Shown here in pieces: positions 7,063-64,000 of a stretch of 64,000 nt of DNA; within the stretch, counting starts at the first letter, position 1; the number at the start of each line of letters is the position of its first letter. The translations under genes and the position numbers were made by a program. Under the pieces are notes generated by a model, which was given only the letters and a program-made list of their open reading frames with translations, made no database searches and had not been told where the DNA came from. The DNA comes from an uncultured Planctomycetota bacterium (lineage in GTDB: Bacteria > Planctomycetota > Planctomycetia > Isosphaerales > Isosphaeraceae), in NCBI GenBank assembly GCA_963823665.1, contig CAWGMQ010000011.1, forward strand, positions 1 to 64,000, in the 5' to 3' direction.

Positions 7063-7199
7063 CACCTTGGAGCTCGTTCCGCTGTTCAGGCTGGCAGCGG
7101 CGAATCGTGGGACATCTGGACATCTTGTCAGTTACAATTGGGCGAAGACGACGACCAGCGCGGTGAGGGTCGGCAGCTCCGCTTGGTGAGGTTAACCTT

Positions 7200-38245: not shown

Positions 38246-38590
38246 TGGGTGCCATTCACATCCCACCAAGCCATGGCGCTCCTTGCCCGCCACTCGCCAT
38301 TTTTTGACGTCACTTCCACGCGCGTGTTCTAGGTTAGCAACAAGAGGATTGCGAGCGCGTGGCGAGCGGCAGAGTGCCGCACCATCCCGCCCGGCCGAAG
38401 CACTGCGAGAATCGGTGCTTGCGAGGCCATTTTCGTCGCGTTGGATCTGAAGACGTCAAGTTTGCGGGTCGGCCGTCCCCGCGGCTCCGATCGCGTTCGC
38501 GCTCTCACGAGCGGCGCTCGCCGCGGCGCCGCCGGAAGCCGGCCCGCGCCCTGGCTCACGCTTTTTTCACTCGCTCTGGAGTTGCCGCTC

Positions 38591-47500: not shown

Positions 47501-49189
47501 TCTGCATTGCCGCAGGGCTCCGGTCCGCTGCTAGGGACGACCACGGTCACGGCCGCGGCGGGCATCGCCACATTCACGAATCTCGCGGAAGACACCGCCG
47601 AGACCATATGGCTGCACTTCACGAGCACTCCCGCGCTCACCGTACTCAACTCGAGCAACATCGTGGTCAGCCCCGGAGCGGCCAGTCAGTTGGCGGTCAG
47701 CACACAGCCCTCACCGACGGCGACGGCGGGCGTGGCTTTTGCTACCCAGCCGGTGGTCTACGTCGAAGACCAGTTTGGCAATCTGGAGACAAACGACAAC
47801 GCGACCCAGGTGACGGCCACATCGTCGCCGCTTGGCTCTGGTCCCCTGCACGGAACCACCACCGTGACGGTCTCCGGCGGTATCGCCACGTTCACGGATC
47901 TATCGGACAACAAGGCCGAGACCATGTCTCTCCGGTTCATCAGTGTTCCTTCGCTCACCGCCGCAACGTCCAGCAGCATCGTGGTCAGCCCCGCGGCGGC
48001 GAGCCAGTTGGGCATTCATACGCAGCCTGGGGCCACGACGACGATCAATGTGCCGTTCAGCCCGCAACCGGTAGTTTACGTCGAGGACCAGTACGGCAAT
48101 CTCGAAACCGGCGACAATAACACGCAGGTGACGGCCTCTCTCAATACCGGCTCGGGTCCTCTGCTCGGTACCACGACGGTGACAGTCTCCGGTGGCGTAG
48201 CCACGTTCACAAACCTTGCCGATCCGACTGTTGAGACCATCACGCTACGGTTTACCAGCAATCCCGAGCTGGCGCAAGCCGTCTCGAACGCAATCGTCGT
48301 GAACCAACAAGTCCCCTATCAACTGGTGCTGCAGACGCAGCCCTCCTCGAGCGCCACGGCCGGTCAGGCATTTTCGCCACAGCCGGTGATCTACGTCGAA
48401 GACCAGGCGGGCGATCTCGTTGTCGGCGACAACACAACCCAGGTGACGGTCTCGTTGCGCACCGGCACCGGCCCGCTTCTGGGAACAACGACGGTCACTG
48501 CGTCGGGCGGCATCGCCACCTTCACCAACCTCACGGATGACAAGGCCGAGTCGATCATCCTGCTGTTCACCGCATCCGGTCTGGTCAAGGCGCAGTCGAA
48601 TCAGATCACGGTGAGCCCCGCCGCAGCCACTTCGCTGAGTATCGTCGCTCCGACGCTCGACACCGCGCGTAAGCCGTTCAGCGCGACCGTGACGGCGTAC
48701 GACCCCTATGGAAACGTCGCAACCGGATATCGCGGGACCGTCCATTTCAGCAGCACCGACCGCGGGGCGGTGCTGCCCGCCAACTACACCTTCACCACTG
48801 GCGACGCCGGTATTCACACATTTGGAAACGGTGTCACGATGAAGACGGTCGGTCAACAGACGATCACCGTTTTCGACATGTCCAACCCGTCGATCACCGG
48901 GAGCATCGTTGTGTACGTGAGCCCGGCCCCGGCGGCCGCCGTGCTCGCTGCTCTCGCGGACAACGGATCATCAGCAGGCCCGGCCGTTGCTGCCGTCTCA
49001 TCGCCAAGCGCCCATCCCATGGCCATGGTCGATAGCGCGCATGTGTCTCACGTAAGAACGGCCCGGGCAGACAGGCGCCGGATGCTTGCTCGAGCGGATC
49101 GAGCTCGCGATCGAGTGCTGGGCGGCTTCATGGGGAGCCTTCATGCTCTTCTGATGGCGGAGCGACTTCTCGATGGTCAGAGCGACTGA
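38591..49189 (+). CDS. Giant surface protein/adhesin: two choice-of-anchor Q/beta-helix modules and 24 Ig-like repeats
   Basis: PRLEFLEERTLLS signal; DSGPGSLRNAI; NGGPTQT...GSPAIDAG...DQRG twice; repeated QPV..EDQYGN. Confidence 0.92.
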   Translation: MSSLNRPGSRIASSRRGQTPIARRRFACSRRNSSPRLEFLEERTLLSIDMVSNSNDSGPGSLRNAIATAGAGDMIEFNMTPGHVTSPITLTTGELTIAQNLKIVGPGASHLTISGNGASTVVAVSTGTNVAISGVTIADGVNGGTGGGVANKGDLKLLDDVLSDNSAQSGGAIYNSTGSLSVTGCTIESNHASNSGFGGGIFVTAGFVTIEDSTFQGNSAEGGGALVNGGGTVSLINSTLTSNSATDCGAIDNASNAELINCTVAGNTSTGIAGGIFNGVVASLTIGNTIIAGNSAGGAASDFDGAVTTDLGNNLIGDTSGSSGFTGPSDLLGVASGLAPLENNGGPTQTMGLTPGSPAIDAGNNALIPAGVGTDQRGFSRIVNGTVDVGAFEVQLYVVDNTNDQGPGSLRAAVTNADQAGGSSILFATTGVITLQSALPAISADVNMVGPGANTLSVSGNAAFQVFDVETGVTAGISGLTITDGSSGGNGGGIENDGTLTLTSCTVSDSSSGNDGGGIFNSGTLTVIASTVSGNTSSNDAGGIENSGTVAVVNSTVADNSANSGQGGGINNAGTLDLVNSTIADNSAFNGGGIQAGGAVTMANTIVGYNTLTGGTGADFDGSISTDSGYNLIADSSGSSGFTQPSDILDVDPLLSALGNYGGPTQTISLLPGSPAIDAGSNALAAFDSSPLTTDQRGDPRINDGIVDIGALETHLFTITILFGDNQSTAVKTDFNVLLTVVLTTFYGEPVEGGIVTFTAPGSGASATFPAGRTIITSPAGTASALAEANTITGSYQVAASSGGAGTKHFNLTNTPGAATQLAIQTQPSATASAGLPFGTQPVIDIEDQYGNLETGDNSTQVTAALATGSGTLEGTTTVTASAGVATFTNLAFSIPDTITLKFTSSPALTSVTSNAIVVTAPPTQLVIETEPSATATAGVSFATQPVVYVEDQYGDLETNDNTTQVTASLASGAGPLNGTVTVTVTGGIATFTNLSDNTAETISLRFTSVPVLTAATSSDIVISPAAASKLAVSTQPSPTATAGVAFSTQPVVDVEDQYGNLEASDNTTQVTATLHTGSGPLLGTTTVTVSGGIATFTDLSDDTAETISLQFTSVPALTSATSNNIDVSSAAATQLVVQTQPSATATAGVAFATQPVIWLEDQYGNLVKGNSAAQVTASALPAGSGPLQGFTTITASNGVVDFSGLAYDTAATIYLHFTSVPALTVANSSNIVVSPAAASQLAIITQPSPTATAGVAFSTQPVVYVEDQYGNLETGDNTTQVSASLNTGSGPLQGTTTETVSGGIATFTNLSDNKAETISLQFTSVPAVTAATSNNIVVSPAAATQLVLITQPSATATAGVAFATQPVVYIEDQYGNVETGDNTTEVTAALNTGSGPLQGTTIETASSGIATFTNLADDKAETISLQFTSVPALAVATSNNIVISPAAASQLAVITEPSPTATAGVAFGTQPVVYVEDQYGNLETGDNATQVTATSLPNGSGPLQGTTTETVSGGIATFTNLADDRAETITLQFSSVPSLAVATSSTIVISPAAATQLALVTEPSATATAGVPFSTQPVIWVEDQYGNIETGDNTTQVTAALNTGSGPLLGTTTETVSGGIATFTNLSDDTAETISLQFTSVPALTAATSNNIVVSPAAATQLVLITQPSSTATAGVAFATQPVVYIEDQYGNLETGDNTTQVTAASLPIGSGPLQGTTTVTASGGIVTFTDLADDTAETISLHFTSSPPLTVLNSNNIVVSPAAASLLAISTQPSPTAMAGVAFGTQPVIWVEDQYGNLETSDNTTEVTAALDLGSGPLQGTTTVMVSGGIATFTNLSDNQAETISLQFTSVPALTAATSNNIVVSPAAATQLVLITQPSATATAGATFATQPVVYIEDQYGNLETGDNSTVVTAALNTGSGPLQGTTLQTAANGIVTFTNLADDKAETISLQFTSVPALAAATSNNIVISPAAASQLAVITQPSLTATAGVAFGTQPVVYVEDPYGNLETGDNATQVTVTSLPLGSGPLLGTTTVTVSGGIATFTNLQDNTAETISLSFSSVPDLTPATSNDIVISPAAATQLALVTEPSATATAGVPFSTQPVIWVEDQYGNVETGDNTTQVTAALNTGSGPLLGTTVLTVSGGVATFTNLADDTAETISLTFTSVPALTAPTSSNIVVSPAAATQLVLITQPSAAATAGVAFATQPVVYIEDQYGNIETGDNATQVTASALPLGSGPLQGTTTVTASAGIVTFTNLTEDEAGTISLQFTSSPALAVTNSNNIVVSPAAASQLAINTQPSPAATAGVAFSTQPVVYIEDQYGNLETSDNTTEVTAALDLGSGPLQGTTTVMVSGGIATFTNLSDNQAETISLQFTSVPALTAATSNNIVVSPAAATQLVLSTQPSATATAGATFATQPVVYIEDQYGNVETGDNTTEVTAALNTGSGPLQGTTIETASSGIATFTNLADDKAETISLQFTSVPALAVATSNNIVISPAAASQLALITEPSSTATAGVAFGTQPVVYVEDQYGNLETGDNATQVTATALPNGSGPLQGTTTETVSGGIATFTNLADDRAETITLQFSSVPSLAVATSSTIVISPAAATQLALVTEPSATATAGVPFSTQPVIWVEDQYGNVETGDNTTQVTAALNTGSGPLLGTTVLTVSGGVATFTNLSDDTAETISLTFTSVPALTAPTSSNIVVSPAAATQLVLITQPSAAATAGVAFATQPVVYIEDQYGNIETGDNTTQVTAAALPLGSGPLQGTTTVTASGGIVTFTNLAENKAGTISLHFTSFPSLAVANSNNVVVSPAAASQLAVSTQPAPTATAGVAFSPQPVIWVEDQYGNLETGDNATQVTAALNTGTGPLQGTTTVTVSGGIATFTNLSDNKAETISLQFTSVPALIAATSNNIVVSPAAATQLILNTQPSPTATAGVPFSTQPVIDIEDQYGNIETGDNSTHVTASALPQGSGPLLGTTTVTAAAGIATFTNLAEDTAETIWLHFTSTPALTVLNSSNIVVSPGAASQLAVSTQPSPTATAGVAFATQPVVYVEDQFGNLETNDNATQVTATSSPLGSGPLHGTTTVTVSGGIATFTDLSDNKAETMSLRFISVPSLTAATSSSIVVSPAAASQLGIHTQPGATTTINVPFSPQPVVYVEDQYGNLETGDNNTQVTASLNTGSGPLLGTTTVTVSGGVATFTNLADPTVETITLRFTSNPELAQAVSNAIVVNQQVPYQLVLQTQPSSSATAGQAFSPQPVIYVEDQAGDLVVGDNTTQVTVSLRTGTGPLLGTTTVTASGGIATFTNLTDDKAESIILLFTASGLVKAQSNQITVSPAAATSLSIVAPTLDTARKPFSATVTAYDPYGNVATGYRGTVHFSSTDRGAVLPANYTFTTGDAGIHTFGNGVTMKTVGQQTITVFDMSNPSITGSIVVYVSPAPAAAVLAALADNGSSAGPAVAAVSSPSAHPMAMVDSAHVSHVRTARADRRRMLARADRARDRVLGGFMGSLHALLMAERLLDGQSD
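41040..48625 (+). repeat. 24 tandem coding repeats, mostly 315 or 318 bp (105-106 aa)
   Basis: EDQYGN-type codons recur at about 41131, 41441, 41756 ... 48083, 48398. Confidence 0.92.
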
Positions 49190-49492: not shown

Positions 49493-49822
49493 CGCGCGCA
49501 TAAGAGATGCTGCCCTGCGTCATCTGCGTCATCTGCGTCATTTTTCAGCCCCAAAACCTCCGCATTGTAGCGATTCTGAGTTTGACGCGTTCTTTGACGC
49601 TGCGCTCGTATCGCTCGACGTCTTGCCCCCGGGGCGAGGCATCGAACGCGCGCCCGACTGCGATCCCCGCGGAACCGGCCCGATGCCCGGCCCCCCCGAC
49701 CGCTCCGTCATGACCGGCCAGTTCTTCCCCCCCGAGTCCCACGCGCATAACAAATGCTGCCCTGCGTCATCTGCGTCATCTGCGTCATTTTTCGGCTCCG
49801 ATTTTCCACATTGGAGCGATCG
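49493..49822 (+). repeat. Two copies, 248 bp apart, of an element containing the tandem 9-mer CTGCGTCAT x3
   Basis: CGCGCATAA...ATGCTGCCCTGCGTCATCTGCGTCATCTGCGTCATTTTTC near 49495 and 49743. Confidence 0.8.
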
Positions 49823-49839
49823 TTCCGTTGATGCTCGAA

Positions 49840-50191
49840 TATCCCAAGCCCCAAGGGGCGACATCGTACAACCTGGCGGCGTGACCCCCCGGTCGGGACC
49901 AAACGCCCGCCATATCCCAAGCCCCAACGGGGCGACATCGTACAGCCTGGTGGCGTGAGCCCCCGGTCGGGACCAAACGCCCGCCATATCCCAAGCCCCA
50001 ACGGGGCGACATCGTACAGCCTGGCGGCGTGAGCCCCAGGTCGGGACCAAACGCCCGCCATATCCCAAGCCCCAACGGGGCGACATCGTACAGCCTGGTG
50101 GCGTGAGCCCCAGGTCGGGACCAAACGCCCGCCATATCCCAAGCCCCAACGGGGCGACATTGTACAGCCTGGCGGCGTGAGCCCCAGGTCG
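49840..50191 (+). repeat. About 4.7 tandem copies of a 74-bp double-hairpin unit
   Basis: CCCAAGCCCC starts at 49843, 49916, 49990, 50064 and 50138. Confidence 0.92.
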
Positions 50192-50463: not shown

Positions 50464-50678
50464 GGGAAAAGCGATCAGCACCGCCGGTCCATCCCGGCCC
50501 GGCCCGATCCGCGATATGTTGATTTTACTGGCATGAGCGGTCGACCGATGCTTATCCTCTGGAATGAAAAAGACTTGCGGGCCCTTGATCAGCCGCGCTG
50601 CGCGACGGAAGTATTGTCGCCCTTAGCTCCGCGAAGGGATTTTCCGACCATCCGCGCATGCGCGACGGAAAGAAGCTC

Positions 50679-51299
50679 ATGTCCGACACCGACACACGAG
50701 TTTCCCTGATCGTCGGCGTTTGCCAGCGTGATCCCGAGCGATGGCGCGAGTTCGACGCCATGTACCGGCCCATGTTGCTCGCCTTTCTGCGCAAGCAACA
50801 CCTAAACGAGTCGGACGCCAGCGACGTCGTCCAGGACATCTTCGTCAAGCTGCTCGACAAGATTCAGACTTACAAACGTGAAAAATACCGCTTCCGGAGC
50901 TGGCTCTTCGCCGTGGCACACAACACGTTGATCGACAAGGCCCGGCGGCGGGCCGCGCACAAGAAGGCCGTCGACGGATGGGTTGTCAACGTGCTCCGCT
51001 CAACCCCGTCGGATAGCCTGAAGATGGCCGAAGAGTGGGTGCGGCTCCATCGCTCGAAAATCCTCGCTCACGCGCTCGAAACCGTGCGCGGCCGTACGTC
51101 GCCGCGGGTGTGGGCGTGTTTCGAGCAACGGCTGTTGCGAAATCGCCCTGGTGCAGAGATCGCCAAGGAGCTGGGTTATGAGCCACCGACCGTTTACGCG
51201 AATGCCCACCGAGTGCTGAATCAGGTGCGTGCAATCTGCCAAGAATTCGACGAGGACCTGACCAATGATGGCGACTCTGGCCTGCCCCGACGAGACTGA
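50679..51299 (+). CDS. ECF sigma factor, kinase-associated planctomycete type (ECF59-like)
   Basis: TRVSLI, WREF..MYRP, DASDVVQDIF, FRSWLFAVAHN..ID, region-4 HTH; overlaps the kinase start. Confidence 0.88.
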   Translation: MSDTDTRVSLIVGVCQRDPERWREFDAMYRPMLLAFLRKQHLNESDASDVVQDIFVKLLDKIQTYKREKYRFRSWLFAVAHNTLIDKARRRAAHKKAVDGWVVNVLRSTPSDSLKMAEEWVRLHRSKILAHALETVRGRTSPRVWACFEQRLLRNRPGAEIAKELGYEPPTVYANAHRVLNQVRAICQEFDEDLTNDGDSGLPRRD

Positions 51300-53213
51300 G
51301 CTCCTGGTGCTGGCGATGGGCGAGCCCGTGGCTGCCGCACTCACAGCGCACGTGGATGGATGCGCAGCCTGCCGGGCGAACCTCAATCGGCTCCAGGCCG
51401 AGGTGGCAATGTTGCGGCAGAACCACGAACGCGGGACGACGCCCCCCTCGACCGAACGCGACCCCGCACTGGAGCACGACGCCGACGCGGCCGACGCCGG
51501 CGACGACCAAGGAGTGGATTCCGCTCGATCCGGCCGGGGCCCCCGGTCCGGAGGCGGTCGCCGCGGCCCGCGAGCTTGCCGAGGGGCTGAATGCCATGCC
51601 TGACGCGATCGGCCGGTACAAGGTCGTCGGCCAGCTCGGTTCCGGCGGCGAGGCGGATGTCTACCGCGTCGTCCACATCAAGCTGGGCAACGACCTGGTG
51701 CTGAAGCTGAGTCGCCGCCAGGTTGGTCCCGACAACCTTAGTCGGCCTGATCGACGAAGGCCGGCTGCTGATCGATTTGCAGCATCCCAACCTGGTGCGG
51801 ATCTACGACCTCGATTTCCACGATAATCGCCCGTTCCTGGTGATGGAGTACGTGCACGGCCGCAATCTGGAGGATTTTGCACGCGACGAGCCGGTAAGCC
51901 ATCGCCGTGCGGCCGCGCTGGCCGCGAAGCTGGCGGAAGTGATGGCCGTGGCGCATCAGCATGGGATCACCCACTGCGACATCAAGCCCAAGAACATCCT
52001 GATCGACAAGCTAGGCGAGCCGCGGCTGATCGACTTCGGCATGGCAAGGCTGCGGCACGCGTGGTCCGATCGCGTCGATTCGTCCGTGGGTGGGACGGTC
52101 GCGTTCATGGCTCCCGAGCAGGCGCGGCTGGAGCTCGATCGGATTGGACCCCGCAGCGACATCTTCGCGCTCGGCGGCGTGCTCTACTTCCTCCTCACCG
52201 GTTCAGCGCCGTTCCAGGGCCAAACCCACGAAGAAGTGTGGGCCCGCGCCCGCCGCTGCGATTTCGAGCCAGCAGCCCTGCGTGTCGCCAAGGTCCCGCG
52301 CCCCCTCGAGCGAATCTGCCTGAAGGCCATGACCGCCGAGCCGGCCGGCCGGTACGAAACGGCTGACGCCATGCAGCGTGCGCTCAAGCGCTATCTCGCA
52401 TGGCCGAAGGTCCTGGCCACGGCGGCTGGCGTTTGCGGCGTTGCGCTGCTCGGGCTCTTGCTCTACATCTTCGGCCCCCGGCCGGTGAAGGAAACGGCAA
52501 CGCCGCCGCTTGGCGGGTCTCAGGTCGCGCCCGCTGCAGATCGCCGGCCGATCCCCGCCCCGACGCAGCCGCTGAAAGGCCGGATCAATCTTCTGGTCGT
52601 CAAATCGAAGGATGGAACCCGGCGCAGGCTCCGGCTCCAGGATCCCCGGGCCGTGCCGTTGCGCGCCGCGGACGAGTTTCGGATCGAGGCCCGGCTCGAC
52701 CGTCCTGCCTACCTCTATCTCTTCTGGGTCGGCTCGGAGGGGAAGGTGGCTCCCCTGTATCCCTGGAAGGAGAACGACTGGTCGCAGCGGCCGGCCGAGG
52801 AACACAAGGTGTCGGGCGCCGAATTGCCGGGGATCTTCGACGACGTTCTGGAAATGCCGGTTTCGCCGCCGGGCCTGGAGACGCTCGTCCTTCTGGCTCG
52901 CGAAGACTCGCCGCTACCGCAGGAAGACGAGGTCAAGCTGGCCCAGGCTCTGTCGGGAACGCCCGTTCCCTTGCCCGACGATCTGACCAAGGCCATCTGG
53001 ATCGAAGATGGCGAAGAGGTGGTTTTCGAGCGGAGCTCTGGTACCAGGAGAAACCGCGCCGGCGAAGACGACTTGAGCCGCGGCATCCCCAGCCCCAAGA
53101 CCCGGAAGAGCGACGATCCGGTGCTGCGGATCCGGGCGCTCTTGAACGAGAAGGTGAAACCGCTGGGAAGTTACAGCCAGGCCGTGTTGTTTCCCAATCA
53201 GGGGGGTTCTTAG
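51265..53213 (+). CDS. Ser/Thr kinase with N-terminal Zn-finger-like motif, TM and extracytoplasmic DUF4384-like domain; frameshifts near 51450-51510 and 51740
   Basis: CP...HVDGCAAC; LGSGGEADV; HCDIKPKN; DFG; APE; TM; FRIEARLDRPAYLYLFW. Confidence 0.85.
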
Positions 53214-53273
53214 ACCGCTTCGGAAGGCGTCTTGCATCCTGTCTGCCGTCATCTCCAAGTGAGGATTATCCCC

Positions 53274-56200
53274 ATGCGCGATTCCGCTTCAGAACAGAAT
53301 TCACTCCGACCAGTTCTGCTGGCTGCGGCCGCGCTGACCTTATTCCTGGCAGGCTTAGTCTCATCGACGGCCAGCGCCGCGCAGCCCGCCCAGCGGCTGA
53401 CGCTCGAGCAGCGCAAGGATCTGAAGCAACGCGCGATCGAATTAAACAATGCCGGGTTCCAACTCTATCAGGAAGGTGAGATCGCTCGCGCCCTGGAGAA
53501 GATGAAGGAAGCGCTTCAGCTCTGCGAACGGCTTTACCCAAAAAGCGAATATCCAGGCGGTGACCCACACTTGGCCGCAAGCCCGAACAATCTGGGCTCG
53601 ATGCTCCAAGATCAGGGATCCTACGTCGAGGCGCGGGGCTTTTATGACCGGGGGCTGGCGATGTGTCAGGCCCTTTACCCCAAGGAGCGGTATCCGGACG
53701 GTCACCCCGACCTGGCCAACAGCCTGAACAACCTGGGCGACCTGCTCGAGGACCAGGGGGCCTTCGCGGAAGCGCGGGCCTTTCTCTAGCGGGCGCTAGC
53801 GATGCGTCAATCCCTCTACCCCAAGGAGCGTTATCCACACGGTCACCCCGACCTCGCCTCAAGCCTTCACAATCTAGGCCACGTGCTCGAAGACCAAGAG
53901 GCCCACGCCGAGGCGCGGGATTATTATGAGCGAGCGCTGTCGATGAACCAGTCCCTCTACCCCAAGGAGCGTTATCCACAGGGTCACCCCGATCTGGCCA
54001 CGAGCCTGCACAACCTGGGCCACCTGCTCGTCGACCAGGGTGCTTACGCCGAGGCGCGGGGATATTATGAGCGAGCGCTGTCGATGAACCAGTCCCTGTA
54101 CCCCAAGGAGCAGTATCCGGACGGTCACCCCGACCTGGCCACCAGTCTGTACGGCCTGGGCTACGTGCTCGAGGACCAAGGTGCCTACGCCGAAGCGCAG
54201 GCCTATCTCGAGCGAGCGCTGACGATGCGCCAAAGCCTCTACCCCCGAGAGCGTCATCCGCAGGGTCACCCGGACCTGGCCAACAGCCTGAACACCCTGG
54301 GCTCTGCGTTAATCCTCCAGGGGGCCTACCGCGAGGCGCGGGGCTATTACGAGCGGGCGCTGTCGATGAACCAGTCGCTCTACCCCAAGGAGCACTATCC
54401 GGACGGTCACCCTGACTTGGCCGCCAGCCTGAACAACCTGGGCCAACTGCTCAAGGACCAGGGTGCCTACGCCGGGGCGCGGGGGTATTACGAGCGGGCG
54501 CTGGCAATGACCCACGCCCTCTACGCGAAGCAGCAGTATCCGCAAGGACAATCCCACTTGGCCATCGGCCTGAATAACATGGGCGGGTTGCTCCAGGCCC
54601 AGGGTGCCTACGAACAGGCGAGGGACTATTATGAGCGGGCGCTGGCAATATACCAGGTGCGTTACCCGAAAGAGCGGTTCCCGCAGGGTCACGCCGACCT
54701 GGCTAGCAGCCTGAGCCGCATAGGCGCACTACTCGATCTACAGGGAGCCGACGGGAAGGCGCGGGGGTATTACGAACAGGCGCTGGCGATGAACGAAGCC
54801 CTGTACCCCAAGGAGCGTTATCCGCAGGGTCACCCCGACGTGGCCTCGAGCCTGAACAACCTGGGCCAGCTTCTCGAGGACCAGGGGGATTACGCCAAAG
54901 CGCGGGCCTATCTCGAACGGGCGTTGGCGATCCGTCAAAGCCTCTATCCCAAGAAGCGCTATCCGAGGGGACACCGGGAACTGGCCACCAGCCTGAGTAA
55001 CCTCGGCGGCTGGCTTTATGCCCAGGGCCGCTACGGCGAGGCCATGCCCCTCGTCCAGCAAGGAGCAGACATGCAGCAGGGCCTGGCCGACGTCCTGGTG
55101 GCCGCCACGTCAGAGGCCGAGGCGCTGAACTACCTTGCCCAGCTCCCATTGGACCGAGACGCTGTTATTTCCGTCTGCCTCCACGTGCCCGACAGCGACG
55201 AAGCAAGCTACGCCCGCGTCTGGGACGGCAAGGCGGCCGTCGCTCGGATGCTCCGGCGCCGCCGAGCTGAGCTGTCTCGCCAGGCTGCCGCCGACCCCGC
55301 CATCCGTCGGGTCGTCAACACCTGGCGTGACGTCCGCAGCCAACTCGCCCGGATGCTAATGGCCACCGCCGACGGCCGCGATCACCCTGAGCGGCTCACC
55401 AGGCTCCAGCAGCTCACCACAGAAAAGGACCGCATCGAACGGAGACTCGCCGAGGCGATTCCCGACTTCCTTCGTCGTCAGGCCCTGGAAGTTGGACCGC
55501 ATAACAAGCTTGTCGAGATGCTCGCTGATCACACGGTCGTTCTCGACCTCGTGAAGTACATACGCATCGAGCGGGCACCGCCGATCGACGGTGATAAAGG
55601 ATGGAGCCTGACACAGAGCTACATCGGCTACGTTCTCGCCAAGGGCCGGCCGGTGCGCGCGGTGGATCTGGGCCCGGCCACACCGATCGACGAGGCGGTT
55701 AAGACGTGGCGGGAAGCTATCAAAAAGCGCCAAATCAGTCCTTCCGGCAAGACGCTCCGCCGCTTGGTGTGGGAGCCCCTTGCGCGGCAGTTCGCGCCCG
55801 CCACGACGACCGTGGTTCTCGCTCTCGACGGCCTCTTGAACTCAGTCCCCTGGGCCGCGCTGCCGGGAGACAACCCCGACAGTGTCCTCCTGGAGCAGTA
55901 CGCCTTGGCCACCGTGCCCCATGCCCCGTTCCTACTCGACCGGCTCACCACACCGGTACCCCCGACTGACCACCCCGGCACCCTCCTTGCTGTCGGTGGC
56001 GTAGCTTACGACCAGCCTCCCAAGCCCGTCGGGGACGAGAAGATCAAGATCGAGGTGCTGGCGTCGCGCCAGCCCGAGACCGCCCGCGGCCGGGACGACG
56101 GCTGGAAGGAGCTGCCCGGCACGCTCGCCGAGCTAAACGCCGTCGCGCGGCTCGCTGGCACACGCACTGTGATCCGCCTTGAGGGCGCCGGCGCCGGCAC

Positions 56201-56888
56201 CGGTCAGCTCCTCCGCGATCTGCCCCGCGCCCGCTGGGCACACATCGCCACCCACGGCTTCTTCGCCAATCCCAGCATCCCCTCGGTCCTGCGGCCTGAT
56301 CCCCAGCACTTCTCTTTCATCGGCACCGAAAGCGTCGGCGCAGGCCTGCGCAATCCGCTGGTCCTCTCGGGTCTGGTCCTGGCCGGCGCCAATCTTCCCA
56401 GCACCGCAGTCGACCCCACAACGCATGACGACCTGGGCATTCTCACCGCCGAGGCGATCGCCGGCCTCCCCTTGCAAGACCTGGAGCTCGTCGTCCTCTC
56501 GGCCTGCGAAACCGGCCTGGGCTTGGTCGGCGGCGGCGAGGGCGTCTTCGGCCTCCAGCGTGCCTTCCACCTGGCCGGCGCCCACAACGTCGTCGCCAGT
56601 CTCTGGCAGGTCGACGACCAAGCAACGGCCGCTCTGATGGCAATCTTCTACGACCAGCTCTGGCGCGAGCACAAGCCGCCGATCGAGGCGCTGCGGACTG
56701 CCCAGTTGAGGCTTTACCACCATCCTGAGTGTATCGGCCAGCTCGCCAAGCTCCGCGGTACGCCCGACTTCGACAAATACGTCCAGCGCCCGGAGCCCGT
56801 CACTACCAATGGCCAGCCAGCCGGGACGCAACAACACGCCCCGATCGAGAAATGGGCCGCGTTTGTGCTCTCGGGGTGGGGGAAATGA
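53274..56888 (+). CDS. Exported TPR-CHAT (caspase-like) protease 1, with in-frame TAG at 53787-53789
   Basis: Signal peptide ending ASA-AQP; eleven 47-aa TPR units; HIATHGFF and LSACETG catalytic motifs. Confidence 0.88.
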
Positions 56889-56896
56889 GGAGGCAA

Positions 56897-59800
56897 ATGA
56901 TGAATCGACGCGACCGCCACTGGAAAGTCTGCAAGCTGGTGCTTACGACGGTACTGGCGGCCCCCGGGGTCGTATTGTTGGTAGCCGCGGTCGCACCATT
57001 CTTCATCGGCTTGATTTCACCAGCAGCCCGCCTCGCAGATTCTTCGGAGCGGCTGACGCCGGAGAAACGCGAGGAGTTGAAGCATGAGGCGATCGAATTG
57101 CTCGAGTCCGCATCCCAACTCCGTCAGCGCGGGGAGATCGTTTTCGCCCTGGAGAAGACGAAGCAGGCCGTGCAGATCTGCGAACGGCTATATCCCAAGA
57201 GCGAGTATCCGGCTGGTCACGCCGCCCGGGCCGGCTGCCTGAACGAGATGGGCAGCCTACTCCAAGACCAGGGGGCCTACGCCGAGGCGCGGGAGTATTT
57301 CGAGCGGGCACTCGCGATGAACCAGGCCCTTTACCCGAAAGAGATGTGTCCGCATGGCGACCCCGACCTTGCCAGAAGCCTGAACAACCTGGGCGCCGCG
57401 CTTTGGGCCGACGGCGCCTACGTCGAGGCACGGGGTTATTACGAACGGGCGTTGGCAATGAAGGAGGCCCTCTACCCCAAGGAGCATTTTCCGCAGGGCC
57501 ACCCTGGTCTGGCCACCAGCTTGAACAACCTGGGCGCGCTGCTCGGGCACCAGGGAGCGTACAGCGAATCACGCGGGTATGTCGAGCGGGCGCTGGCGAT
57601 GTGCCAGGCACTCTACCCCAAAGAGCATTTTCCGCAAGGACACCCCGAACTGGCCAAAAGTCTGACCCTCCTGGGCGTCGTGCTCCAGCACCAGGGGGCC
57701 TACGTCGAAGCGCGCGGCTATTTCGAGCGGGCGCTGGCGATGTACCAGGCCGTCTATCCCAAAGAGAGGTATCCCCGCGGAAACCCCGACGTGGCTCAAT
57801 GCCTGGACAACCTGGGCGCAGTGCTCCAGGCGCAAGGGTCCTACGGCGGGGCGCGGGGCTATTGCGAGCGGGCGTTTTCGATGTACCAGGCCCTCTACCC
57901 CGAGCAGCGGTATCCGCACGGTCACCCCCGCCTGGCCGAAAGCCTGACCTCTCTGGGCTTCCTGGTTGACGCCCAGGGAGCGCACGCTGAGGCGCAGGGG
58001 TATTTCGAGCGGTCGCTGGCGATGTACTCGACCCTCTACCCCGAGGAGCAGTATCCGCACGGACACCCCGAGCTCGCCCGAAGCCTGCGCAACATGGCCA
58101 CCGTGCTCAAGACCCAAGGGACCCATGCCGAAGCACAGGAGTATAGCGAGCGGGCGCTAGCGATCTACCAGGCCATCTACCCCAAGGAGCGGTATCCGCA
58201 CGGACATCCGGACTTGGCCGCGAGCCTGATCAACATGGGCGTCCTGCTCCAGGTCCAAGGTGCCGACGGCGAAGCGAGAGGCTATTTCCAGCGGGCCCTG
58301 GCGATGTATCAGACCCTCTACCCCAAGGAGCAATACCCGCGCGGGCATCCCGCCCTCTCCCCAAGCCTGAACAAACTGGGCGAATTGCTTTATGCCGAGG
58401 GGAACTATCGCGAAGCGCGAGGGTACTTCGAGCGGGTGCTAGCGATGAATCAGGGCCTCTACCCCAAGGAGCTTTATCCGCAGGGGCACGACGACCTGGC
58501 CACCAGTCTCAGCAACGTTGGATCGGTACTGTACAGCCAAGGGGTCTACGGCGAGGCCAGGCCTTTTCTACAGCAATGCGTGGACATGCAGCAGCGTCTG
58601 GCCGAGATCCTGCTGGCCGCAACCTCCGAGGCCGAGGCGCTGAATCACATGGCCCAGCTCGCATTAACCCGAGACGGTTTCATCTCGGTCTGCCTCCATG
58701 TGCCCGGGAGTGACGAGGCATTGTATGACCGGCTCTGGCGCGGCAAGGCAGCCGTCGCTCGCATGCTGCAGCGCCGCCAGGCCGAGCTATTTCGCCAGGC
58801 TGCTGTCGCCCCTGGCGCCGCTCGCGACATCGAGACCTGGCGCGAAATCCGCGATGAGCTCGCCCGGTTGCTGTTGGCGACGGCGGACGGCCGCGACCAC
58901 CCTGAGCGGCTCGCACGGCTTCAGCATCTCACGGCAGATAAAGAGCGAATCGAGCGCCAATTGGCTGCGACGATTCGCGAGTTCGCCCGTCATCAGGACA
59001 TGGAGCGTAGCCGCTATACCAGGCTCGTGGAAGCGCTCCCAGAGCACATGGTCATCCTCGATATCACAAGCTACACACGCTCCGAACAGGACCCGCAGAT
59101 CAAAGGGGAGAAGGGGTGGCGCGCGACACCCAGCTACATCGGCTTCGTGCTGGCCAAGCGCCGGCCGGTGCGCGCGGTGGATCTGGGTCCAGCCGCGCCG
59201 ATCGATGAGGCGGTTGAAACCTGGCGCGAGGCCATCAAGGGGCGGCGGGCGAGTCCTGCTGCCGCGGTGCTCCGCCGCCTGGTCTGGGAACCCTTTGCGC
59301 GGCGGTTCGCGCCCGAGACGACGACCGTGGTTCTCGCTCTCGATGGCTGGTTGACCGCGGTCCCTTGGGCCGCGCTGCCGGGCGACAAGCCGGGCACCGT
59401 GCTCCTGGAGCAGTACACTTTAACCACCGTGCCCCACGCCCCGTTCCTCCTCGACCGGCTCACGGCGCCGGCGCGCCCGGCCAACGCCCGGGGTATTCTT
59501 CTGGCTGTTGGTGGCGTCGCCTACGACCAGGCCCCCAAGCCCGTCGAGGACGAGAAGACCAAACCCGAAGTATTAGCCCTGCGCCAGCCTGAGACCGGCC
59601 GCGGCCGCGGCGACGGCTGGAAGCAGCTACCCGGCACGCTCAACGAGCTGAACGCCGTGACGCGGCTCGCCGACCCTCGCACTGTGTTTCGCCTCGAGGG
59701 AGCCGAGGCCGGCACCGCGCAGCTCGTCCGCGAGCTGCCCCGCGCCCGCTGGGCACACATCGCCACGCACGGCTTTTTCGCAGATCCGAACATCCCCTCG

Positions 59801-60403
59801 GTCCTGCGGCCGGATCCCAAGCTCTTCGGCTTCGTCGGCAACGAAAATGTCGGCGTCGGCATGCGCAATCCGCTCGTCCTTTCGGGCCTGGTCCTGGCCG
59901 GCGGCAATCGGCCGAGCGCCGATGCGGACAACTCACCGCATGATGACATGGGCATCCTTACCGCCGAGGCGATCGCCGGACTTCCCTTGCAAGACCTCGA
60001 GCTAGTCGTCCTTTCCGCCTGCGAGACCGGCCTGGGATTAGTCGGCGGCGGCGAGGGGGTCTTCGGCCTCCAGCGCGCCTTCCACCTGGCCGGTGCCCAC
60101 AACGTCGTCGCCAGTCTCTGGCAGGTCGACGACCAAGCAACAGCCGCTCTGATGGCGATCTTCTACGACCAGCTCTGGCGGGAGCACAAGCCGCCGATCG
60201 AGGCGCTGCGGACCGCCCAACTCGCGATTTACCGCAATCCCGGTCTGGCGGGCCAGCTCGCCAAGCTCCGTGGCACGCCCGACTTCGACAAGCTCGTCCA
60301 CCGCCCCGAGCCGGTCCCCGGGGCCGGCCACGACCAAGAGCCGAAAAACCGCGCCCCAGTCAATCATTGGGCTGCCTTCGTTCTCTCGGGATGGGGCAAG
60401 TGA
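56897..60403 (+). CDS. Exported/membrane-anchored TPR-CHAT protease 2
   Basis: GAGGAGG RBS; hydrophobic N-terminus; ten 47-aa TPR units; HIATHGFF, LSACETG, WAAFVLSG. Confidence 0.92.
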   Translation: MMNRRDRHWKVCKLVLTTVLAAPGVVLLVAAVAPFFIGLISPAARLADSSERLTPEKREELKHEAIELLESASQLRQRGEIVFALEKTKQAVQICERLYPKSEYPAGHAARAGCLNEMGSLLQDQGAYAEAREYFERALAMNQALYPKEMCPHGDPDLARSLNNLGAALWADGAYVEARGYYERALAMKEALYPKEHFPQGHPGLATSLNNLGALLGHQGAYSESRGYVERALAMCQALYPKEHFPQGHPELAKSLTLLGVVLQHQGAYVEARGYFERALAMYQAVYPKERYPRGNPDVAQCLDNLGAVLQAQGSYGGARGYCERAFSMYQALYPEQRYPHGHPRLAESLTSLGFLVDAQGAHAEAQGYFERSLAMYSTLYPEEQYPHGHPELARSLRNMATVLKTQGTHAEAQEYSERALAIYQAIYPKERYPHGHPDLAASLINMGVLLQVQGADGEARGYFQRALAMYQTLYPKEQYPRGHPALSPSLNKLGELLYAEGNYREARGYFERVLAMNQGLYPKELYPQGHDDLATSLSNVGSVLYSQGVYGEARPFLQQCVDMQQRLAEILLAATSEAEALNHMAQLALTRDGFISVCLHVPGSDEALYDRLWRGKAAVARMLQRRQAELFRQAAVAPGAARDIETWREIRDELARLLLATADGRDHPERLARLQHLTADKERIERQLAATIREFARHQDMERSRYTRLVEALPEHMVILDITSYTRSEQDPQIKGEKGWRATPSYIGFVLAKRRPVRAVDLGPAAPIDEAVETWREAIKGRRASPAAAVLRRLVWEPFARRFAPETTTVVLALDGWLTAVPWAALPGDKPGTVLLEQYTLTTVPHAPFLLDRLTAPARPANARGILLAVGGVAYDQAPKPVEDEKTKPEVLALRQPETGRGRGDGWKQLPGTLNELNAVTRLADPRTVFRLEGAEAGTAQLVRELPRARWAHIATHGFFADPNIPSVLRPDPKLFGFVGNENVGVGMRNPLVLSGLVLAGGNRPSADADNSPHDDMGILTAEAIAGLPLQDLELVVLSACETGLGLVGGGEGVFGLQRAFHLAGAHNVVASLWQVDDQATAALMAIFYDQLWREHKPPIEALRTAQLAIYRNPGLAGQLAKLRGTPDFDKLVHRPEPVPGAGHDQEPKNRAPVNHWAAFVLSGWGK

Positions 60404-60411
60404 GGAATCGC

Positions 60412-61179
60412 ATGACAAATCGACGTGAACTCCGTGAACTCCGTGGACTGCGTTGGAAGTTGGCATTTATCCCGGTCCTGGTGACCGCCGCGTGCGGGGC
60501 TGGCGAAACGCAGGCACCGGCACCAAAGCAAGCCGACCCCGAGCCGCTGAAAGCCGTTCTCCATCTCCGAATCGGCGACCCGGCCGACGTGGGCCGCCGC
60601 AATCTTCGGCTCGACCAGCCCAACGTGCTCCCTGTCAAGGCGGGCGACTGTTTCCACATCGAAGCGCGGCTAAACCGCCGCGCCTACGTGTATCTTTTCT
60701 GGGTCGGCTCCGACGCCAAGGTCTCCCCGATGTACCCATGGATGCCCGGCCACTGGGACAAAAGGCCCGAGCGGGAGGAGAAGAGAGATCGCCTCGACCT
60801 TCCGGACCAGGCTGACAAGGCGTGGACGATCCCGACCGGAAGCCCGGGAAACGAGACGCTGCTCCTGCTCATCCGCGAAAAAAGCCCATTGCCGCGGCGG
60901 GACGAGGAGAAGCTCGCGAGGCTCTTCGCCGACGCCCAGGTGTCCAGCTCGGTCCTGATCAAAGAGGCCGTCTGGCTTGAGAACGGCCGCGAGATCACGC
61001 TCGACAAGCAAGACCGCGCGTCGCCCAGCCCGAAGACCCGCAAGAGCGATGACCCCGTGCTGCGCATCCGCAAGCTATTGAGCGACAAGGTCCAGCCGCT
61101 GGGCGACTTCTGGCAGGCCGTGGTCTTTCCGAACGAGGGGGGCAAGGAAAAGGCGAGTTCCCATCAACAAGAGAAGTAA
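60412..61179 (+). CDS. Stand-alone DUF4384-like protein, probable lipoprotein
   Basis: LAFIPVLVTAA-C lipobox-like; colinear with the kinase C-terminal domain. Confidence 0.8.
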   Translation: MTNRRELRELRGLRWKLAFIPVLVTAACGAGETQAPAPKQADPEPLKAVLHLRIGDPADVGRRNLRLDQPNVLPVKAGDCFHIEARLNRRAYVYLFWVGSDAKVSPMYPWMPGHWDKRPEREEKRDRLDLPDQADKAWTIPTGSPGNETLLLLIREKSPLPRRDEEKLARLFADAQVSSSVLIKEAVWLENGREITLDKQDRASPSPKTRKSDDPVLRIRKLLSDKVQPLGDFWQAVVFPNEGGKEKASSHQQEK

Positions 61180-61254
61180 ACGACGCATCGAATCGCGATT
61201 CTGACGGAGAGCACCGCGGACACCCGCACGGATCTTTTCCCATTCGCTGTTCGG

Positions 61255-61419
61255 CGCAGGTCTGCAACCCCGCCCAATGTCGCCCTTCGCTCCGCGAAGG
61301 GATCTCCCGGTTGGCCGCAGGTCTGCAACCCCGTCCAATGTCGCCCTTCGCTCCGCGAAGGGACCTCCTCGTTCGGCGCGGGTCTCCTGACCCCGCCGGG
61401 GCCGCGACCGGAGGTCTCC
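61255..61419 (+). repeat. Composite REP-like cluster with 61-bp period
   Basis: CGCAGGTCTGCAACCCCG.CCAATGTCGCCCTTCGCTCCGCGAAGGGA at 61255 and 61316; GGCGCGGGTCTCC...GGAGGTCTCC at 61375. Confidence 0.8.
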
Positions 61420-61445
61420 CGGCGTTTCATACGCCAATCCCAAAT

Positions 61446-61479
61446 CGATGAAAGATTTCCAGCGGGCGTGCGTAACAGA
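61446..61479 (+). promoter_or_regulatory. Putative ECF promoter, second copy
   Basis: CGATGAAAG...GCGTGCGTAACAGA. Confidence 0.5.
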
Positions 61480-61529
61480 AGGTGATAGATGAATTGGGAA
61501 GGTGCATCCTGTACAAGAAAGGGCACGCC

Positions 61530-62132
61530 ATGGCCGTCTTCATCGCCACCACTGTGCAATGGGTCATTCTCCCACTCATCATGTGCGCGATCTTCGCGTT
61601 CGCCTGGATCATCGCCAGCTCGGCAAAGACCGCCGAATTGCGCGTTTCGTCTTGGGCGGGTTTCTGGGCCGGGCTGCTCACCTTCGTTGTCTACGTCGTG
61701 AGCCAGCTCGGCCAGATCCAGGAACCAAAGCTCCAGTTCGAGAAATTGCCGGGCGTGCAATTTCTCGAGCTGGGCTGGGGACTGACCACCGGCTTTGTGT
61801 TTCTCTCGGTTGTCCGGCACGCCGTGCCCACACGCCTGGTCGGGCTGCTCACGCTCATGCTCGCCGGCTCGAGCACATCGGCACTCTTCACTTATGTCTT
61901 TATCAACCCTTCGAGGGTCTCGGTCTTGTACTGGACGCTCGGCACCGCCCTGGGGATTCTCTTGCACATCGTTCTCTTCCCCACGTCCATCGCTCACATT
62001 TTCCCCCTGGCCGATAAAAAGGATCGCTTTCTCATCGACGCACCGCGGAGGCCGGCGGCATCGACCTCTGGCGCTGCGGGAACAGGCGAGTCATCGCTCA
62101 ATGCCCAGCCGCTTCAACCCGCAGCCGCTTGA
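61530..62132 (+). CDS. Polytopic membrane protein (5-6 TM)
   Basis: Multiple hydrophobic helices. Confidence 0.75.
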   Translation: MAVFIATTVQWVILPLIMCAIFAFAWIIASSAKTAELRVSSWAGFWAGLLTFVVYVVSQLGQIQEPKLQFEKLPGVQFLELGWGLTTGFVFLSVVRHAVPTRLVGLLTLMLAGSSTSALFTYVFINPSRVSVLYWTLGTALGILLHIVLFPTSIAHIFPLADKKDRFLIDAPRRPAASTSGAAGTGESSLNAQPLQPAAA

Positions 62133-62238
62133 GCGCTGGGTCTCTCAGATCATGTTGGCAAGATTCTGACTCTCCGTAAGTCCGTGTACTGACTACGAGT
62201 GACTTTCAAGGTCCGATCGACGAGAGGAAACACCGATC

Positions 62239-63729
62239 ATGAAAAGCATCGTCCAATGGCTCACGGCAACATTGACCCTTGCCGTGCCGTTACTGGGCGC
62301 CCAGGCCCACGCCGGCGGCTCGGCCGATTCGGTCGTCAAGGTGTTCACCCAGATGCGGCTGCCCAACCCGGTGCGGCCGTGGATCAAGCAGAATCCCGTC
62401 GAGGTGATGGGCAGCGGCGTGGTCATCGAGCGGAAAACGGATCCTCACCAACGCCCATCTGGTCCTCTACGCGGATGAGGTCTTCGTTCAAGGCGGCCGA
62501 GGGGGCGACCGGGTCGAGGCCAAAGTGGCCGCGATCGGGCCGGGTATCGACCTGGCCGTGCTGACACTCGACGACGAGACGTTCTTCGCCAAGCGGCCCC
62601 CGATCGTCCGCGCGTCGAAGCTTCCCGAGATCACGTCGCGGGTCGCGGTTCAGGGCTTTCCGGTCGGCGGCACCAGCCTCTCGACCACCCAGGGAACGGT
62701 GGCGCGCATCGAGTACGACTTCTACGAGACCGGCGCGGCGGGCTTGCGAATCCAGGTCGACGCCGCGATCAACCCGGCAACAGCGGTGGGCCAGCCGTGA
62801 TCGACGGCAAGATGATCGGTGTGATCTCGGGCCATGCCGAGAACATCGGTTACATCATCCCCAACCAGGAGATCGACGACTTTCTGACCGATGTCGCCGA
62901 CGGTCGTTACGAGGGCAAGCCTTACATCTTCGACCAGTTGCAGACGATGGAAAACGAGGCGCTGCGCGGCAAGCTCGGCGCTGGCGAAGGACGTGCACGG
63001 GCTGATGGTCCGCGAGCCGAAGCACCGCGATCCGTCTTACCCGCTCAAGGAGTTCGACATCCTGACGCGAATCGGCACGCACGAGATCGACAACGAGGGG
63101 ATGATCCAGGCGGAGGACAATCTTCCGACTTTCGTTCATGTCGCAGGTCCCGAAGCTCGTCCGCAATGGGACGGTGCCGGTGACCGTGCTGCGTGCCGGC
63201 AAGACGATCGAGGTGGCCCTGCCGGTCAGTCGCGAGCCTGACCAGTTGCTCCGCGGCTATGACGGCGCGCTACCCGTCTTACTTCGTTTGCGGCCCGCTG
63301 GTCTTCTCGCCGGTGGTCTCCAACGCGGTCCGTTACTACTTCCAGTACAACCCTGGTCTCGGCGGTCGCAACAGCCCGCTGTCGACCCGGCGCTCCGACC
63401 GGGCGCACTTCCCGGGCGAAGAGCTCGTCGTGGTCACGGCACCGCTGCTTCGGACCCGGATGACCAAGGGCTACGCAGACCCATTCGGACAGGTCCTGAG
63501 CGAGGTAAACGGGACCAAGGTCAAGAACCTCGCGCACCTGGTCGAGCTGATCCGGTCAAGCAAGGACGAATACCTCACCTTCCGGTTCGCCGAGGACTAC
63601 AGCGAGACGCTGGTCTTCCGCCGCAAGGCGATGCTCGACGCGACCGAGTCGCTCATGAGCGAGAACGGCATTCCCCGCCGGGGAAGCGACGATGTGCTGG
63701 CGGTCTGGAACGGCAAGGTCGGGAAATGA
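62239..63729 (+). CDS. Exported Deg/HtrA-like trypsin protease with PDZ domains, about 5 frameshifts
   Basis: Signal peptide AQAHA; GSGVVI, ILTNAH, DLAVL and DAAINPGNSGGP across frames; YPSYFVCGPLVF...VNGTKVKNL. Confidence 0.85.
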
Positions 63730-63832
63730 ATTGAACGAGAGCGGAATTCGCTTTCTCGCGCGGGTGGTGAAGCCAGCCTGGCCTGGCCCCACCCGCAAGC
63801 TTCACGACCAGAGCGCGAGACCGAGTATTGTT

Positions 63833-63861
63833 GTCGCAGGCACACTCCGTGTGCCGTCCGC
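63833..63861 (+). repeat. REP-like palindrome, copy of 23600-23628
   Basis: GCAGGCACACTCCGTGTGCCGTCCGC identical. Confidence 0.75.
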
Positions 63862-64000
63862 TTTGACGTCGGCGCACCCGCTCTCACGGCTCGTTTTTGG
63901 CGAACACATCGGGCACGCGGACGACGAACCCTCGCAACACGGTGCCGCCATCGAGCGATTGGTTCTCGTCGAGAAGAATCGACCGATCAAGCGCCGTGCA

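Follow-up and report, generated by a model that had tools for sequence, protein, structure and literature searches.

The window analysed here is the first 64 kb of contig 11 (CAWGMQ010000011.1; coordinates are those of this contig, + strand) from the genome of an uncultured planctomycete, an assembly of 16.46 Mb in 12 contigs with ~64% G+C and at least 159 Hanks-kinase matches. On the + strand, from 50.6 to 63.7 kb, the window carries a compact, co-oriented gene run that leads from a sigma factor of the extracytoplasmic function (ECF) type, through a membrane receptor kinase and two TPR-CHAT proteases, to a Deg-like protease. Our subject is this run and, within it, the relation between the CHAT proteases and the DUF4384-like ectodomain of the receptor. 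Genes were called from open reading frames (ORFs) together with Pfam, NCBIfam and PADLOC profiles, and motif coordinates were located separately, giving the following features.

50679..51299, +, ECF sigma factor (Pfam Sigma70_r2, NCBIfam TIGR02937); conserved start MSDTDTRV at 50679, with a longer ORF from 50658
51265..53213, +, receptor gene: predicted ZAS-type anti-sigma domain, Hanks kinase, transmembrane helix and DUF4384-like ectodomain, in three frames (51265-51603, 51356-51826, 51723-53213)
51283..51372, +, zinc-finger anti-sigma motif of the receptor, Cys7...His29-x3-Cys33-x2-Cys36 (motif location)
51638..52121, +, catalytic core of the kinase (GSGGEA, VLK, HCDIKPKN, DFG, APE; Pfam Pkinase), with the second frame break falling inside it
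52410..52475, +, the receptor's only transmembrane helix, a hydrophobic 22-mer, VLATAAGVCGVALLGLLLYIFG
52521..53210, +, DUF4384-like ectodomain of the receptor (Pfam DUF4384, 23.5 bits; alignment of 35 sequences), with loop SRGIPSPKTRKSDDPVL at 53076-53126
53274..56888, +, TPR-CHAT protease 1 (CHAT1): signal peptide 53310-53378 (...TASA/AQ), TAG 53787-53789, His motif 56241-56264, Cys motif 56496-56516, tail RGTPDFDK 56754-56777
56885..60403, +, TPR-CHAT protease 2 (CHAT2), intact: hydrophobic anchor 56936-57016, His motif 59756-59779, Cys motif 60011-60031, tail motif 60269-60292
60412..61179, +, stand-alone DUF4384-like protein: lipoprotein-like LVTAAC 60478-60495, loop DRASPSPKTRKSDDPVL at 61012-61062
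61530..62132, +, multi-pass membrane ORF, family-less
62239..63729, +, Deg/HtrA-like serine protease with PDZ_3 and a signal peptide, ~five frame changes; TNAH at 62447, DLAV at 62549, GNSGGP at 62776
53285..63831, no strand, 10.5-kb block from CHAT1 to the Deg-like gene, missing from the same-genus genome G001 (blastn synteny)

Gene calls across 50679-63729 bear out the tight, co-oriented + strand cluster given in the preliminary description of this DNA, with an ECF sigma factor at its start and a free paralogue of the receptor ectodomain within it. Other elements of that description stand in part. The receptor gene does overlap the sigma gene (its start at 51265 lies inside the end of the latter, an overlap of 35 nt) and encodes the zinc-finger, kinase, transmembrane and DUF4384-like parts claimed for it, but over three frames rather than as an open one. 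The two exported TPR-CHAT proteins have the His and Cys motifs and the export-type N-termini ascribed to them, but CHAT1 contains an in-frame TAG. A membrane protein and a Deg-like protease do close the run, but the frame of the protease is broken about five times.

The genes are packed closely elsewhere as well, the ATG of CHAT2 overlapping the stop codon of CHAT1. A simple promoter scan found no sigma-70-like site, a scan that is uninformative for an ECF-driven operon. On the window genes PADLOC returned generic kinase and TPR matches only and recognised no known defence system, and Pfam gave no cas families among the cluster ORFs. The multi-pass ORF at 61530-62132 has no Pfam, NCBIfam or PADLOC match and is kept only in the cluster of G021, at 67% identity.

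Sigma factor, receptor and proteases

The first gene encodes a member of the ECF (group 4) sigma-70 factors: it matches Sigma70_r2 (E 7.8e-15) and, over residues 29-191, the curated sigma70-ECF model TIGR02937 (64.7 bits; cut-off 42.9), and has the sigma2 and sigma4 regions only. Its region 2.2 reads DASD. The D-A-x-D pattern is kept across 16 aligned sigmas, and orthologues have DAND, DAGD, DADD, DAHD, DAAD or DVED at this position; the Ser of the window copy is not conserved.

The receptor opens with C-x21-H-x3-C-x2-C. Across 20 aligned receptor N-termini His29, Cys33 and Cys36 are invariant and Cys7 nearly so, and Pfam zf-HC2 matches 18 of these 20 orthologues at E <= 0.1 (best 5e-8), with the window copy at 17.3 bits, under the cut-off of 22.2. 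Searched against solved anti-sigma factors, the zinc-finger profile matches RslA (3hug_B, 4.8e-6), RsiW (8.4e-4), ChrR (2.5e-3) and DdvA (8rlz, 7.3e-3), and by sequence the zinc-finger family belongs to ZAS class I (zf-HC2). Because it matches ZAS anti-sigma domains in this way, we take the receptor "zinc finger", on sequence grounds, to be an anti-sigma domain of ZAS type that is joined to a Hanks kinase. The preliminary description had found no anti-sigma gene; the anti-sigma function would reside in this fused domain. The kinase itself is of the Hanks Ser/Thr type (Pfam Pkinase, 121.6 bits), with GSGGEA, VLK, HCD, DFG and APE all present, though its open frame is broken twice.

The presence of a kinase raises a different route to sigma control. 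An ECF gene beside a transmembrane Hanks kinase is also the arrangement of the ECF43 pairs EcfP-PknT and EcfK-PknS, on which the activation first suggested for this locus was modelled: the kinase would phosphorylate and switch on the sigma factor, and the zinc finger would be a mere tether. The complete Hanks core is conserved in all relatives, the DASD of the window sigma has a Ser at its third place, and further kinase-linked groups are known (ECF43, 59-62, 217, 267 and 283 are named in PMC7826278). That Ser, however, is not conserved among orthologues. ECF43 is described as replacing DAED by S/T and as having no anti-sigma factor (PMC7826278), whereas the window sigma retains D-A-x-D and has a candidate anti-sigma domain next to it, one whose matches to solved anti-sigmas point to sequestration. 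We consider activation of the sigma factor by phosphorylation unlikely. Because the sigma has D-A-x-D where phospho-activated ECF43 sigmas have S/T, control by release from the anti-sigma domain appears the more likely.

On the other side of the membrane helix, the ectodomain resembles DUF4384 (PF14326): the window matches score 23.5 and 23.9 bits, below the gathering cut-off of 27, relatives reach 29.7-34.3 bits, and many database relatives of the ectodomain carry PF14326. The stand-alone protein at 60412-61179 (255 codons) is 51% identical to the receptor ectodomain (E 1.2e-55), and to the eye it looks like a lipoprotein at its N-terminus, where LVTAAC comes after a basic and a hydrophobic stretch. 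A model of the DUF4384-like ectodomain (entered under 60412-61179; pLDDT 89.6, pTM 0.86) is a beta-sandwich with two helices. Foldseek returned nothing for this model at E <= 0.001, and a PDB sequence search with the ectodomain profile returned nothing at E <= 1. VIA-align gave only generic immunoglobulin (Ig)- or macroglobulin-like beta-sandwiches (best Z 7.0), among them an alpha-2-macroglobulin MG domain (Z 6.7) and a Bacillus proteinase inhibitor (Z 5.0), both within the generic range. The same ectodomain, with loop HSRGALFFDPQRIDEPVL, occurs in the metagenome protein P0057 behind a TIR domain and one transmembrane helix; since TIR takes the place of the kinase there, the ectodomain is also used with a non-kinase output.

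Both CHAT genes contain HIATHGFF and LSACETG and match CHAT (PF12770) far above its cut-off of 24 bits (CHAT1 200.3, CHAT2 203.5), and their CHAT domains are 79% identical. All 14 of the aligned CHAT parts have the His375/Cys459 dyad without change; family match and dyad together place both proteins among the clan CD proteases. When the C-terminal 585 residues of CHAT2 were modelled (pLDDT 76), Foldseek matched the model to Craspase Csx29 (7xsr_C at 3e-11; Csx29 range 3e-11 to 1e-9), DdvA (8rot_A, 3.5e-9) and separase (9hm7, 6.7e-9). The predicted fold of the CHAT part is thus Csx29/DdvA/separase-like; a PDB sequence search with the CHAT profile found nothing at E <= 0.01. CHAT1 begins with a classical signal peptide (...TASA/AQ); the N-terminus of CHAT2 is basic and is followed by a hydrophobic anchor of 27 residues. 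Export-type N-termini were judged here by eye and from hydrophobicity. With such N-termini the CHAT proteins would share a side of the membrane with the ectodomain.

The Deg-like gene matches PDZ_3 with 81.2 bits and has TNAH, DLAV and GNSGGP in different frames; its protease fragments score 21-35 bits on NCBIfam models, far under the cut-offs of these. Orthologues follow the lipoprotein gene in loci L036, L042 and L043, and the copy in L042 is intact. A trypsin-like hidden Markov model (HMM) from G008 (TRYP) did not match the window gene and represents a different family. Separately, a Trypsin_2 protease, unrelated at the HMM level to the Deg-like gene, is encoded between kinase and CHAT in L036 (10872-12373), L039 (10726-12234) and L046 (10708-12399).

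Receptor and protease across related loci

Among close relatives, the ectodomain query found a match in 8 of 41 genomes, that of the window included. A wider set of 38 loci came from a one-genome-per-species scan with one ectodomain peptide pattern, and nearly all of them are labelled as Planctomycetota metagenome-assembled genomes; their content was read from six-frame translations, with HMMs derived from the window and related sequences. The ectodomain is fused to a kinase in 36 of the 38. Of the 38 loci, 29 have CHAT downstream in the same orientation, as do 22 of the 25 that have at least 6 kb of downstream sequence; the three without it are the G001 locus, a free paralogue that itself lies after a CHAT gene, and a contig-start case. 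At least 20 of those 29 loci have a signal-like hydrophobic stretch at the start of the TPR-CHAT gene, L070 being a clear exception. In 10 loci, those of the closest relatives, CHAT is followed by another ectodomain gene, a free one.

The sigma side is less constant. An ECF gene lies upstream in 18 of the 38 loci, a zinc finger is present in 21 of the 36 kinases, and the two occur together in 17 loci; CHAT is still present in 11 loci that have neither. Co-conservation of the neighbourhood therefore holds for the kinase-DUF4384 protein and TPR-CHAT, but not for the ECF gene and the zinc finger, and G001 is without CHAT. Because ECF gene and zinc finger occur in about half of the cases, and CHAT in loci lacking both, the constant core is the kinase-transmembrane-DUF4384 protein with TPR-CHAT, to which one branch has added the anti-sigma/sigma output.

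The G001 locus shows the run without its proteases. There, the counterparts of window positions 50511-53284 and 63832-64630 are ~45 bp apart by blastn, and the 10.5-kb stretch that spans CHAT1 through the Deg-like gene is missing. An intact ECF-kinase pair is kept, and a CHAT orthologue is absent genome-wide (best match 41% identical), so the pair can persist without the protease; this is a point against tying the two together. Loss of the CHAT block in G001 is the simpler reading of its absence, since more distant relatives carry the full set.

Retention of the ECF and kinase genes in G001 without the 10.5-kb block also favours an alternative in which the CHATs, the lipoprotein and the Deg-like protease are cargo, members of the sigma regulon or mere neighbours, and do not act on the receptor; ECF operons often include their own target genes. 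Yet CHAT follows the kinase-DUF4384 gene in the 11 loci that have neither ECF gene nor zinc finger, 10 loci have a free paralogue with the ectodomain fold next to the protease, and a loop of the ectodomain co-varies with the tail of the protease, as described below. With these three observations against it, we regard the cargo explanation as very improbable.

The co-varying elements are a short, conserved, RG-containing ectodomain loop between the last strands and the last helix (listed above for the window receptor and for the lipoprotein) and a CHAT tail loop ~45 residues before the C-terminus, RGTPDFDK in the window, which is a disordered, low-confidence region of the CHAT2 model (residues 544-566). 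Their sequences at six loci are as follows.

L048: ectodomain loop DRGPNFSGPQ, CHAT tail loop SRGPAFDQPA
L053: ectodomain loop DRGPKFFNPQ, CHAT tail loop SRGPKFEETV
L058: ectodomain loop ERGLDFAAGQ, CHAT tail loop ERGLKFEPTR
L064: ectodomain loop HRDLNLDEPQ, CHAT tail loop KRDLELERPG
L066: ectodomain loop TRSLDFEKVK, CHAT tail loop NRGLDFDKQG
L060: ectodomain loop IKLGKGGDIS, CHAT tail loop LNIAKGGKLP

The best 10-mer BLOSUM62 score was taken for each pairing of 11 representative lineages, and the pairing was permuted 100,000 times. The mean best score is 17.7 within and 12.1 between loci (permutation p = 0.0006), and the own partner comes top of its row in 5 of the 11 lineages, a small set in which some are kin (L048 and L053 have the motif in common). 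This co-variation fits a direct contact between protease and ectodomain. Closely matching loops, APKSFDVRRIDD and GPKNYEINRIED, also occur in the metagenome protein P0117, whose 1545 residues hold kinase, transmembrane helix, ectodomain and TPR-CHAT in one chain; with its 13-residue duplication, P0117 may be an assembly artefact. Two apparent CHAT+DUF4384 fusions, P0001 and P0033, were both left out of use; P0001 was judged a read-through of CHAT into the lipoprotein gene, since the signal peptide is retained.

Contact could also occur without cutting. DUF4384 would then be a ligand or inhibitor of the CHAT cleft, and TPR-CHAT a co-receptor that sets kinase activity and cuts something else. 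A common loop shows only that one site may recognise both partners, and the ectodomain model is Ig/macroglobulin-like with a proteinase-inhibitor match (Z 5.0), all in the generic range. Against such docking, the catalytic His/Cys dyad is strictly kept, and the known TPR-CHAT systems cleave, as reported for Csx29 acting on Csx30 (bioRxiv 10.1101/2022.08.17.504292); we think it an unlikely account of the contact.

Two kinds of neighbour were seen upstream of zinc-finger kinases. An Rce1-like/CPBP intramembrane protease gene lies there in L062 (7761-8123) and L069 (7333-7917), where the ECF gene is absent, and in L039 a nucleotidyltransferase/HEPN pair, toxin-antitoxin-like, lies directly upstream (7195-7966).

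Interrupted frames and surrounding sequence

The receptor gene of the window copy is broken in the assembly. Compared with the intact 649-aa orthologue of G001 it has two +1 breaks, one extra base at ~51501, in a variable acidic linker, and one at ~51738-51750, in the kinase N-lobe. The TAG of CHAT1 (53787-53789) stands at the Glu position of the repeat consensus (neighbouring repeats read ...ERALAM...), is a base substitution and not an indel, and cuts the signal peptide and first TPRs (53274-53786) off the catalytic part. In the Deg-like gene about five frame changes fall between 62239 and 63729; the L042 orthologue has a single open frame of 525 codons. The cluster thus has eight interruptions within 13 kb.

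These breaks and the TAG could be real mutations in a decaying, non-functional locus, a reading that bears on this genome only and not on the module. Their density, the substitution in CHAT1 and the complete loss of the CHAT block in G001 all speak for decay. A comparison of G001 ORFs with 84 kb of contig 11, however, finds four other conserved genes frame-split, near 24203, 67415, 69035, 72.8 kb and 83.57 kb; these are single long ORFs in G001 and lie here over two or three frames, which suggests a sporadic genome-wide indel problem. G001 is broken in others in turn, its copies of the two giant genes of the window (38441-49189 and 24796-31941), intact here, being frame-split. Related loci, from similar assemblies, are broken too, at positions other than those of the window. 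In addition, thin short-read soil contigs with ~95% identity to the window have single-base differences from it at 62430, 62772/62775, 63121/63122 and 63270, exactly at four Deg break points; this comparison shows cover at the Deg break points, not at 51501, 51745 or 53787. Given that breaks also affect other conserved genes in the vicinity, we rate assembly error no less likely than real decay and judge a decaying locus somewhat unlikely. For this genome caution is warranted, as eight interruptions in 13 kb are not yet distinguishable from assembly error.

The soil-metagenome contigs of run X1 reach a summed depth of 21 at 61328-61774, against 0-5 elsewhere in the cluster, and of 11.9 at 63563-64000. 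The pile-ups at these two places may mark a repeat or a segment common to other organisms.

The two giant intact ORFs of the window lie at 38441-49189 (+, 3582 codons) and 24796-31941 (-, 2381 codons). The former has internal repeats and is syntenic with an Ig-like-repeat protein of G001. Between this giant surface-protein gene and the ECF gene, a 74-bp tandem repeat occupies 49839-50191 (4.8 copies, 96% matches), and long minus-strand ORFs called over it are shadows of the repeat. Near it are two sets of triplets of the 9-bp CTGCGTCAT, at 49515-49541 and 49762-49788.

A proposed proteolytic switch and its known counterparts

We propose, at even chances, that CHAT acts directly on the DUF4384 ectodomain and so controls a sigma factor held by the fused anti-sigma domain. 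That CHAT does this by cleaving the receptor at the loop is a more tentative suggestion, to which we give somewhat less than even weight. In the scheme we have in mind, the CHAT tail loop would be a pseudo-substrate that fills the active site until the TPR array binds its signal. Ligand on the TPR array would free the active site, and the freed CHAT would cut or clamp the matching loop of the receptor. The damaged ectodomain might be trimmed further, perhaps by the co-encoded Deg-like PDZ protease, and the cytoplasmic ZAS anti-sigma domain would then let the sigma factor go. Phosphorylation by the kinase would be a second, parallel or modulating output, and the sole output in relatives without the sigma factor; the free DUF4384 lipoprotein could serve as a decoy or buffer substrate.

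Several observations weigh against direct action of CHAT on the receptor, besides the G001 locus and the broken receptor gene. The 38 loci were gathered by one ectodomain peptide pattern and many are kin, so that they are less independent than their number implies. This module of soil planctomycetes is rare: in an even sample of the phylum, only 2 of 300 other genomes with a completeness of at least 80% have an ectodomain match at E <= 1e-10. Four zinc-finger kinases have no ECF gene directly upstream. In the clade of the window itself the match between loop and tail is weak (RGIPSP vs RGTPDF, score 10, rank 6 of 11). Finally, the proposed cut would fall towards the ectodomain's C-terminus and well away from the membrane, unlike classical site-1 cuts.

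If CHAT does act on the ectodomain, the module couples an extracellular proteolytic input to the Hanks kinases, a family that has expanded hugely in planctomycetes, and the co-varying loop is a concrete site for mutation. A more general form, which we hold to be rather doubtful, is a periplasmic caspase-like switch in which a secreted TPR-CHAT protease, closed by its own pseudo-substrate tail and opened by ligand on the TPR array, cuts a matching loop of DUF4384 receptors with exchangeable cytoplasmic heads (anti-sigma-kinase, kinase or TIR), and which evolved apart from CRISPR. If true, such a switch would amount to a family of protease-activated receptors with exchangeable outputs.

Parts of this arrangement recall known pathways. 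In the RseA-DegS-RseP pathway of sigma E, a periplasmic PDZ protease starts the destruction of a single-pass anti-sigma factor. The cluster likewise encodes a Deg-like PDZ protease, but the candidate first protease is a caspase-like CHAT, and a site-2 protease gene was not seen in the cluster. Among the classified ECF groups, planctomycete ECF62 was compared by gene context: the ECF gene is followed at +1 by a one-transmembrane kinase with an N-terminal zinc finger (PMC7826278), as in the window. The ECF62 kinases usually have WD40 repeats outside, however, and the description of the group makes no mention of a CHAT neighbour (PMC7826278). The ECF25 anti-sigmas are single-pass proteins with a zinc-binding domain inside and DUF4384 outside; unlike the receptor of the window they have no inserted kinase, and no CHAT partner is given in their description (PMC7826278). 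A CHAT protein with TPR is listed in the context of ECF54 (PMC7826278).

Among the papers searched, none was found on a kinase-DUF4384 protein together with a secreted TPR-CHAT protease. The preliminary description likewise knew of no characterised case, but the combination has precedents which that description did not name, in DdvA-DdvS and in the Craspase Csx29-Csx30-RpoE system as well as in ECF62. In DdvA-DdvS of Myxococcus xanthus, an ECF sigma factor is held by a CHCC/ZAS zinc-bound anti-sigma domain, joined through a single transmembrane helix to a periplasmic separase/craspase-type TPR-CHAT (PMC11506125). Its authors propose the CHAT part as a site-1 protease, a cut that would be "unprecedented" if true, and report DdvA-like proteins only in Myxococcota and one Comamonas (PMC11506125). 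All parts of DdvA are in one polypeptide, its active site is incomplete, and the domain make-up given for it includes no kinase or DUF4384 (PMC11506125). In the window, by contrast, TPR-CHAT is separate, with an export-type N-terminus and a complete dyad, and a Hanks kinase and a DUF4384-like ectodomain are part of the putative anti-sigma protein. With ZAS and TPR-CHAT encoded by separate genes (51265-53213 and 53274-60403) rather than in one chain, the system is not of the DdvA-like type.

In Craspase, of type III-E CRISPR, the TPR-CHAT protease Csx29 cleaves Csx30, which binds RpoE; Csx31 is also part of the system, and one group of Csx30 C-terminal domains is DUF4384 (bioRxiv 10.1101/2022.08.17.504292). 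The likeness is that of a TPR-CHAT protease with a DUF4384-type partner predicted to hold a sigma factor, and the best fold matches of the window CHAT are to Csx29. Craspase, however, is described as cytoplasmic and as switched on by Cas7-11 with target RNA (bioRxiv 10.1101/2022.08.17.504292), whereas the window has export-type proteases, a membrane kinase as the partner and no cas gene among the cluster ORFs; the cluster is not a Craspase. Control of ECF sigma factors by TPR-CHAT is known in two settings, intracellular in Craspase and periplasmic in DdvA. In the module described here, protease and receptor are split, the active site is complete and the target domain also exists as a free paralogue, which would make the protease-substrate step testable in vitro with two soluble proteins.

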